A program made the translations under genes and the position numbers. The notes below the pieces were generated by a model. The model saw nothing but the letters and a program-made list of their open reading frames with translations, was not told where the DNA came from and did no database searches. Shown piece after piece: positions 19,436-21,036 of a stretch of 64,000 nt of DNA (within the stretch, counting starts at the first letter, position 1; every line of letters begins with the position of its first letter). The DNA comes from Escherichia phage WPEC3. Where the stretch lies: sequence record PV611058. The stretch is one strand, 5' to 3'.

Positions 19436-19945
19436 TTAACCACCGTACTTTGACTTATATGTTTCTAAAGATAAAGAAATGCGATTTTGCTTTTTAATTC
19501 TTTCATCAATATCCTTTGAATTCTTAACACTTCTGTATACATCAGCTAATAAATTATAATCTTCTTTATTTGAGCTATGTAATGCCCAACCTATATCTGT
19601 TTTGATTCGAACATATGCTTTATTTGATGTGAAATAAAAATTGAATCCGTTAGACCCATCAAAAATATCATAAGTATTTACCCAATCTCCATAAGGAAAA
19701 CTCATTGGTACTGACTCATAATCAATGGTGATATCCGATAAATTTTTAGAACAGTACTTTACGAAGTGGTAAACAATCGGATCACATTTTGATAATTCGT
19801 ATTTGTATTCAATGATAGTTTTTCTATTAGTATCATTGATGGCATATTCTTTCATCAATGGACTTTTTTTGATGATAAGAGTCCATAGAAACGATTCTAA
19901 TCCAGTTTCATCAACTTTTTCTTTCTTTTTGAAAAATGAAATCAT
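19436..19945 (-). CDS. hypothetical protein, member of 3-gene tandem paralog set
   Basis: 169 aa; shares N-terminal block (T/N-D-x-x-R-x-x-L/I-E-x-KY-x-LSK) with the two upstream ORFs. Confidence 0.5.
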   Translation of the reverse strand: MISFFKKKEKVDETGLESFLWTLIIKKSPLMKEYAINDTNRKTIIEYKYELSKCDPIVYHFVKYCSKNLSDITIDYESVPMSFPYGDWVNTYDIFDGSNGFNFYFTSNKAYVRIKTDIGWALHSSNKEDYNLLADVYRSVKNSKDIDERIKKQNRISLSLETYKSKYGG

Positions 19946-20463
19946 TTATATAAACCCTTAATTTTCTGTCTATTATGTATATCATTTTGCTGAATTTTCA
20001 AATTAGTAAGATTGTGTCTTACACCTTCAACGCCACGCATTATTTGTAACATAATTAGTGATTCGTCATATGTTAGAACATTGCTATTATTATCGATATA
20101 TACTTTCACTCCACTTTCAAGATAATCATTTTCTTTGGAGTTAAAGTTTCTAATAGCAAACTTAACGCCATTTGTTGCATCACTGAATACATATCGTTCC
20201 GCACCGTAGAATGTTTTTCCACGAAATAAACCGCCTTCTTCAAACTTCCAACGACTGGATTCATAATCATTAACGTAATCAATGATTAATGGTAGCAAAG
20301 GGTGTTTGCTCAATTTATATTTTGCTTCTAACAGAACACGACGATCTTGATCTGTATTGATGATATCTTTAAGTGTGAAACTTTTTGATATAATTTTAAA
20401 GATAATTTCATGCCAAATTAAAGTACTGTTTTGTTTTCCAACTGGGCCAAAAAACATATTCAT
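19942..20463 (-). CDS. hypothetical protein, member of 3-gene tandem paralog set
   Basis: 173 aa; TDQDRRVLLEAKYKLSK block. Confidence 0.5.
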   Translation of the reverse strand: MNMFFGPVGKQNSTLIWHEIIFKIISKSFTLKDIINTDQDRRVLLEAKYKLSKHPLLPLIIDYVNDYESSRWKFEEGGLFRGKTFYGAERYVFSDATNGVKFAIRNFNSKENDYLESGVKVYIDNNSNVLTYDESLIMLQIMRGVEGVRHNLTNLKIQQNDIHNRQKIKGLYK

Positions 20464-20469
20464 TCCTCA

Positions 20470-21036
20470 TTAGTATAAATCAGTAATGTCTTTGTATGCA
20501 TTAATCTGTTTTTGTTGTAATGAAAGTTCATTGAGTTTAGTTACCATTTTATCTACGCCAACACGTATATAGAAAATAATAAATGAATCTAACTTGCCTA
20601 GAGTAATTCTTGAACTGAAAGTTGAAAGTTTTCTTGCATAAACATAAATTTCTTCTTCACTTGGTAAACGTTTCTCAATCAGCAAGTTTTCCACACCATT
20701 CGGCTCATAATCAATCTCGAACTCTACGCCTATCACAGTATCTTGAATGATATCAGTATATGAACCACCGAAAAAAAACTCTCTTGGTTTGGTTCTCCAA
20801 CGAGGACTAAATGGGTCAGATGCGTATTCTTTTACAAATTTGTAAAAGGACATTTTACTGAGCATATACTTCATCTCAATTAGTGCTTTGCGGTCATCAT
20901 CAGTTTTAAACTCTGCTTTGAGCGATGGACTTTTACACAGTAACTTAACTAAATTGTTGTACATCTTTAATGTACGTTGGTCTTTCATTTCTTGGATTTT
21001 GTGACGCTTTGGTGGTGGTAGTAAAGATTTGACCAT
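20470..21036 (-). CDS. hypothetical protein, member of 3-gene tandem paralog set
   Basis: 188 aa; TDDDRKALIEMKYMLSK block. Confidence 0.5.
   Translation of the reverse strand: MVKSLLPPPKRHKIQEMKDQRTLKMYNNLVKLLCKSPSLKAEFKTDDDRKALIEMKYMLSKMSFYKFVKEYASDPFSPRWRTKPREFFFGGSYTDIIQDTVIGVEFEIDYEPNGVENLLIEKRLPSEEEIYVYARKLSTFSSRITLGKLDSFIIFYIRVGVDKMVTKLNELSLQQKQINAYKDITDLY

Follow-up and report, generated by a model that had tools for sequence, protein, structure and literature searches.

Tandem sets of paralogs are common in jumbo phages, and most genes of the RaK2/121Q-like jumbo phages lack an assigned function. In phage RaK2, around 10% of gene products are paralogues (PMC3622015), and the BLASTP-based paralog table published for phage CBB omits the four CBB genes that belong to the family described here. 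That family is represented by three adjacent genes, designated C, B, and A, in a 64,000-nucleotide stretch of Escherichia phage WPEC3 (sequence record PV611058; hereafter, the window). The same genes, known elsewhere as 121Q gp502–504, RaK2 ORF001/002, and CBB_150/153/155/156, have been deposited as hypothetical proteins and clustered in PHROGs, where they form two separate, unannotated families (phrog_18641 and phrog_7868); here, the two are united as one (98.8% hhalign probability) with a conserved pairing of an A-type and a B/C-type member. Literature searches returned no mention of these genes and no earlier description of their paralogy. The union of the two PHROGs, the conserved pairing, a predicted fold without relatives, a promoter module, and a signature of cassette exchange are new, and three hypothetical proteins become a defined clade-specific family.

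Between 17 and 25 kb, the window is 99.5%–99.6% identical to Escherichia phages EC.P1, Ecwhy_1, and fEgEco12 and ~79% identical to 121Q and PBECO4. All five are ~350-kb jumbo myophages of the genus Asteriusvirus, and the phage of the window is likewise an Asteriusvirus (121Q-like).

The three paralogs and their relatives

All genes of the neighbourhood lie on the minus strand, and the three paralogs (the triplet) occupy exactly the interval 19436–21036 given for them in an earlier, sequence-only reading of this DNA:

20470..21036, minus strand: paralog C, 188 amino acids (aa), B/C-type, the gene that opens the transcription unit; equivalent to 121Q gp502 and phAPEC6 gp321c (from the open reading frame [ORF] scan and orthologues)
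19942..20463, minus strand: paralog B, 173 aa, probably 171 aa from 20457, B/C-type; equivalent to 121Q gp503
19436..19945, minus strand: paralog A, 169 aa, A-type; equivalent to 121Q gp504

The more probable start of paralog B is its second ATG (20457); GAGGA precedes this codon by 6 nt, and homologues begin correspondingly, with MFFG. A and B overlap in an ATGA, the start codon of A running into the stop codon of B.

Formal alignment of the three proteins is significant in every pair: by pairwise BLASTP, B and C are 30% identical over 175 aa (E 9e-16), with A matching B at E 8e-6 and C at E 2e-5. Profile–profile comparison (hhalign) of the A-type and B/C-type alignments gives a probability of 98.8% and an E value of 6.7e-17 across 151 of ~170 columns; the homology is therefore full-length rather than a single common motif, and the similarity that had been noticed beyond the motif towards the C terminus extends over the whole protein. 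As judged by these alignments, A, B, and C are confirmed as true, very diverged paralogs of one small protein family, as the sequence-only reading had proposed. The motif on which that reading relied is a real block in all three proteins but had been recorded one residue short, with a single position in place of two before the glutamate: it reads [TN]-D-x-[DN]-R-x-x-[LI]-[LI]-E-x-K-Y-x-L-S-K. Across 45 family members, the conserved residues (B numbering) are K27, S28, L31, D38, R41, I45, K48, Y49, S52, K53, R71, D95, and F102, and a tyrosine at or beside the C terminus is near-invariant (44 of the 45). Comparison with 121Q yields ratios of nonsynonymous to synonymous divergence (dN/dS) of 0.07–0.25 for A, B, and C, which denotes purifying selection and marks all three as real, expressed, and constrained genes. 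No fourth copy was found in a search across the 64-kb window.

Scans against PHROGs gave full-length hidden Markov model (HMM) matches of B and C to phrog_18641 (2.9e-80 and 7.2e-78, respectively) and of A to phrog_7868 (1.9e-52), with weaker cross-matches between the two (4e-10 to 2e-5); neither carries a functional annotation. Pfam returned no consistent match for single proteins or for all 35 aligned members at E values up to 10, a PADLOC scan matched no catalogued defence or anti-defence family, and a sequence-profile search of the PDB gave nothing below E 0.09. A word-indexed search recovered only 12 clusters, and an exhaustive profile search of 1.84 billion representative proteins recovered 32 relatives at E ≤ 1e-3, nearly all of 140–200 aa. 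One 2278-aa representative match (P0033) was rejected as a low-complexity artefact.

Mapping by tblastn and inspection of loci placed the family solely in RaK2-like enterobacterial jumbo phages: Asteriusvirus, Alcyoneusvirus (RaK2 ORF001/002, Muenster), Mimasvirus (CBB, GAP32), and Eneladusvirus (Yersinia phages fHe-Yen9-03/04, Erwinia phages, and Serratia phage BF), together with metagenomic relatives. Members are 150–200 aa long and mostly basic, with an isoelectric point (pI) of ~9 in most. Copy number was taken from HMM scans of all ORFs in 16 loci, with types assigned from subfamily HMM scores:

Two copies: Alcyoneusvirus and three metagenomic lineages
Three copies: Asteriusvirus (the divergent A4 and JNE01 included) and one metagenomic lineage
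Four copies: Mimasvirus and Eneladusvirus (in CBB: CBB_150, CBB_153, CBB_155, and CBB_156)

Wherever the types can be resolved, each genome holds at least one A-type and at least one B/C-type copy, and in Asteriusvirus and Alcyoneusvirus the B/C-type comes first and the A-type last. Because the pair recurs across genera, the A versus B/C split is older than these genera; the duplication of B/C came later and is limited to Asteriusvirus plus one metagenomic lineage. The suggestion of an expanded accessory family that varies in copy number among related phages is thereby borne out and refined, in that the family is confined to one jumbo-phage clade and its principal split is ancient. The 133-aa gene that follows A (gene D), RaK2 ORF004, and the genes after the downstream nucleotidyltransferase (NTase) were tested as possible members, and none belongs.

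AlphaFold2 models of A and B, built with the 35-sequence alignment, reached a mean predicted local distance difference test (pLDDT) of 89.6 and a predicted template modelling score (pTM) of 0.81 for A, and 84.6 and 0.76 for B. Both share one predicted architecture: a disordered basic N terminus, four helices (~16–67), an antiparallel 4–5-stranded beta-meander (~72–124), and a helix of ~40 residues running to the C terminus. The four-helix part holds the conserved K-S...D-x-x-R...K-Y-x-L-S-K motif, the most conserved stretch of which lies in a predicted helix-loop-helix at residues 38–65, and the near-invariant tyrosine closes the long C-terminal helix. That helix may be either a free stalk or a spine packed by both lobes; the invariant terminal tyrosine and the high pTM are compatible with the spine. 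A BFVD search recovered only uncharacterised proteins of large myoviruses.

The promoter module and exchange of alleles

The triplet is separated from the structural genes upstream of it by a composite terminator and promoter, which was located by scanning and by inspection of the sequence. Its parts, and the corresponding elements ahead of the structural genes, are as follows:

21060..21099, minus strand: composite terminator and promoter before C, comprising a hairpin (21099–21078), then a T-run and the -10 box
21088–21083, minus strand: -35 box TTGACG, within the loop/3′ arm of the hairpin
21065–21060, minus strand: -10 box TATAAT, 17 nt past the -35 box; promoter match 11/12
21047–21041, minus strand: Shine–Dalgarno sequence AGGAGGA, ahead of the ATG of C
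27221–27203, minus strand: second terminator, before the structural trio
27190–27183, minus strand: late-type motif CATAAATA, just past the second terminator and 40 nt upstream of the gene for the 898-aa structural protein

The hairpin and TTGAC...TAtAAT recur together at this gene boundary in 121Q, A4, JNE01, and Klebsiella phage Muenster, and also in CBB, Yen9-04, and one metagenomic relative, which brings the number of genera to four (further coordinates: L016 3290–3325, L015 3335–3370, L010 6440–6480, and L005 ~7920–7960). By its sequence, this is a compact module that would end late transcription and start host-type transcription.

For phages CBB and GAP32, a published prediction makes ATAAATA the late promoter ahead of structural genes and treats RpoD-like promoters as early (PMC5259590). 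On the coding strand of the 64 kb, ATAAATA occurs at two sites only (27183–27190 and 35202–35208, minus strand), and it precedes the 898-aa structural gene, not C. Neither strand of the 64 kb contains the T4 late-promoter octamer TATAAATA (0 sites against 10.5 ± 3.3 expected). With a sigma70-type promoter of its own behind a terminator, and with ATAAATA before the fibre unit but not before C, the triplet would head a host-type unit separate from that of the late fibre genes. No transcriptome for these genera turned up in the literature.

The proteomes of two related phages suggest that the products are not part of the virion. In phAPEC6, gp323c (orthologous to the 898-aa protein), gp314c, and gp315c are present in the virion proteome (Table 1 of that study), and gp319c–321c (the triplet) and gp318c (D) are absent from the list. 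Mass spectrometry (MS) of CBB virions was positive for CBB_148 and CBB_149, which are structural orthologues, and did not detect CBB_150, 153, 155, or 156.

Protein identities between the genes of the window and those of three other Asteriusviruses set the triplet apart from its surroundings:

Against A4: triplet 31%–38%, NTase 86%, structural trio 41%–53%, NrdG 80%
Against JNE01: triplet 28%–35%, NTase 73%, structural trio 65%–77%
Against 121Q: triplet 91%–93%, NTase 82%, structural trio 72%–85%

Between Asteriusvirus sublineages, the triplet is the most diverged gene set of the neighbourhood, and its divergence tracks neither that of the neighbouring fibre genes nor that of the NTase. Against 121Q, synonymous divergence (dS) is 0.13 for C, 0.22 for B, and 0.53 for A, versus values above 1 in the flanks. 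A 100-nt sliding comparison with 121Q (L002 7600–9300) gives ~94% identity from ~19.4 to 21.09 kb, versus 70%–80% in the flanks; the boundaries of this patch are sharp, and it comprises exactly the three paralogs and their promoter, with the 3′ end of the fibre gene lying outside. On the simplest reading of these comparisons, recombination has recently replaced the whole cassette at once, by exchange between the 121Q lineage and that of the window, amid alleles that are deeply diverged within the genus. Co-conversion by a homing endonuclease was considered and rejected as the origin of the patch: the closest HNH gene (16017–16628) lies 2.8 kb away, beyond diverged sequence.

The surrounding genes

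The triplet forms a packed unit in the order C-B-A-D-RlaP NTase-ACP-like (ACP, acyl carrier protein), within which A, D, and the NTase gene abut or overlap. The neighbours on either side are as follows:

21107..27149, minus strand: structural fibre-/whisker-like trio of 898, 195, and 909 aa, a separate unit between the terminators at 27221–27203 and 21099–21078
19032..19433, minus strand: gene D (phrog_22376), 133 aa, between A and the NTase gene; not a family member
17797..19035, minus strand: RlaP-family Pol-beta NTase, 412 aa, its start overlapping the end of D by 4 nt (Pfam PF10127, 8.8e-17; phrog_388)
17370..17825, minus strand: ACP-like gene (phrog_5934, ACP, 3e-8; annotated as ACP in relatives), the last before the spanin genes

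Gene D always stands directly upstream of the RlaP NTase and is 58%–67% identical across Asteriusvirus and Alcyoneusvirus, being far better conserved than the adjoining paralogs. The sequence-only reading had placed the paralogs immediately upstream of the Pol-beta NTase gene region. In the relatives that were examined, from four genera and several metagenomic lineages, the two are close together without exception, but strict adjacency does not apply in the window, where D intervenes between A and the NTase gene. RlaP lies 0–4 genes from a family member in 13 of 13 loci, a count that is confounded by clade-wide synteny, and 0–2 genes from one in the most distant loci, with the member in L013 abutting RlaP. 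In Mimasvirus, Eneladusvirus, and locus L012, members are interleaved with genes for Thg1 (tRNA-His guanylyltransferase), DUF4326, and a methyltransferase just upstream of RlaP, and CBB_153 overlaps the end of Thg1. Genes for an RNA ligase (Rnl) and a polynucleotide kinase (Pnkp) are found elsewhere in the window.

Several further observations concern these neighbours. The RlaP model covers only approximately residues 14–131 of the 412-aa NTase, leaving the other ~280 outside it, and an ACP-like gene directly after it is an unusual partner for an RNA-repair enzyme. The 898-, 195-, and 909-aa proteins, which have no Pfam match, share a C-terminal module of ~120 residues ending ...TYRPSTT-K/R-GS..P.S.G.P...GT..W, and the 195-aa protein resembles a stand-alone C terminus of the other two (cross-matches of phrog_26864 and phrog_3573). 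Directly downstream of the NTase gene in RaK2, ORF006 and ORF007 (L003 3113–4031) form a second, weak tandem paralog pair (BLASTP 5.6e-4), both C termini reading ...EDY-D/E-CGY; CBB_160/161 are given as paralogs in the CBB paper.

Farther away, the stretch 39080–39850 within the Sir2 gene region is an assembly or sequencing artefact and not biology. It contains long poly-C/poly-G runs with a GC content of up to 79%, the Illumina TruSeq adapter AGATCGGAAGAGCACACGTCTGAACTCCAGTCAC twice, with an index, and a duplicated fragment of ~80 nt (39082–39160 = 39527–39605). Close relatives match it in four pieces only, and the ORF beside it (38678–39022) encodes a fragment of a T4-like portal protein.

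Candidate functions and comparison with known systems

Firmly supported is a clade-restricted family of 2–4 genes per genome that keeps an ancient pair of types, encodes non-virion products, has its own conserved promoter, and shows hypervariable, exchangeable alleles. This finding is solid but ordinary, a tandem paralog family not being a surprising kind of object, and the locus is a well-delimited candidate for an accessory function in host interaction or RNA repair. We tentatively favour a reading, as yet short of probable, in which the family consists of binding proteins expressed from a host-type promoter, whose variable partner is most likely a host factor, perhaps encountered where RNA is damaged and repaired, and which may work as hetero-oligomers of A with B/C. 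Host RNA polymerase would transcribe their genes, early or in any case apart from the late genes, and the proteins would be non-structural and act through binding. For a partner, the likeliest candidate is a variable host factor; the alternative is damaged RNA together with the adjacent RNA-repair enzymes, namely RlaP here and the Thg1 and DUF4326 proteins interleaved with the family in sister genera. The obligatory pairing of A with B/C suggests a putative hetero-oligomer. Such a locus would evolve as an arms-race cassette, since the triplet is the most diverged set locally and was, on the simplest reading, lately transferred as one exact block.

Several points weigh against this reading. Anti-defence genes tend to be sporadic, and presence at a fixed locus in every member of the clade is unusual for them. 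That the products are missing from virion MS lists is negative evidence, expression timing is read solely from promoter-like sequences, and the Pfam, PADLOC, and PDB profile scans provide no homology-based functional lead. Synteny is general within this one clade and confounds the linkage with RlaP, and large structural genes likewise always lie upstream of the family.

That linkage bears most directly on the next explanation, according to which the proteins are dedicated subunits of RNA (tRNA) repair, that is, basic RNA-binding adaptors or scaffolds delivering the ends of damaged tRNAs to RlaP, Thg1, Pnkp, and Rnl. RlaP puts one or two nucleoside monophosphates on the 3′ ends of damaged RNA (PMC12776372) and is thought to work with RNA ligases (PMC12776372; PMC7824862). 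The triplet shares a packed unit with RlaP; in CBB and Yen9-04, Thg1 and DUF4326 genes alternate with members (to the point of overlap in the case of CBB_153); one member lies directly beside RlaP in L013; and the basic pI and several conserved lysines and arginines would suit such a role. An adaptor for a conserved substrate would not, however, be expected at ~30% identity within a genus in which RlaP is 73%–86% identical, and RlaP-encoding Vequintavirinae of the PVP-SE1 type have no family member near RlaP. This explanation is held to be unlikely, though still worth keeping in view.

The position of the triplet on its other side invites comparison with fibre or whisker assembly chaperones (like Tfa, gp38, and gp57), which would aid the folding or trimerisation of the upstream structural proteins and not be kept in the virion. 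Family members lie directly downstream of the 898/195/909-aa trio here and of its counterparts in all Asteriusvirus, Mimasvirus, and Eneladusvirus loci; their products are missing from virions and evolve fast; and ~170–190 aa is a typical size for Tfa proteins. The sequences nonetheless speak against co-transcription and co-variation with a cognate fibre tip. A conserved terminator and an independent sigma70-type promoter stand between the 909-aa gene and C, and divergence is uncoupled in both directions (against JNE01, fibres 65%–77% and triplet 28%–35%; against 121Q, fibres 72%–85% and triplet 91%–93%). The high-identity patch ends at the promoter and leaves out the fibre 3′ end, Alcyoneusvirus retains the family behind entirely different, depolymerase-type fibres, and copies are interleaved with Thg1 and DUF4326 in Mimasvirus and Eneladusvirus. 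Searches for the Caudo_TAP/Tfa and gp38-like chaperone families gave no sequence or fold match to the triplet, and we regard a chaperone role as improbable.

Slightly more improbable still is that the proteins are sequence-specific DNA-binding regulators, in which the N-terminal helices would form a helix-turn-helix (HTH), the C-terminal helix would mediate dimerisation, and the alleles would match lineage-specific sites. The helix-loop-helix predicted at residues 38–65, which holds the most conserved motif, is in keeping with this, as are the basic pI and the inclusion of the promoter region in the exchanged patch.

It is very doubtful indeed that A-type and B/C-type proteins build XRCC4/PAXX-like head-and-stalk hetero-oligomers that scaffold RlaP, Thg1, Pnkp, and Rnl on cleaved tRNAs, their hypervariability reflecting evasion of host nucleases or inhibitors targeting the complex—if true, a viral RNA-repair counterpart of the scaffold of non-homologous end joining (NHEJ). 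Comparison with the XRCC4/XLF/PAXX/SAS-6 superfamily gave no significant structural score and no sequence similarity, and the helical part of the family precedes its sheet, whereas XRCC4 has an HTH inserted in a 7-stranded sandwich.

Among described systems, the chaperones of the Tfa/Caudo_TAP and T4 gp38/gp57A kind are alike in being small, non-virion, fast-evolving, and encoded just past fibre-like genes; the triplet differs in having its own promoter and in diverging and recombining independently of the fibres. The reading of the family as variable binding proteins finds its counterpart in fast-evolving early accessory and anti-defence cassettes, such as the hyperplastic regions of T4. Shared with these are small genes without known domains, a host-type promoter, non-virion products, extreme divergence of alleles within a genus, and recombinational exchange; what distinguishes the present family is that it occupies the same locus in all examined members of its clade and conserves an ancient pair of paralogs.

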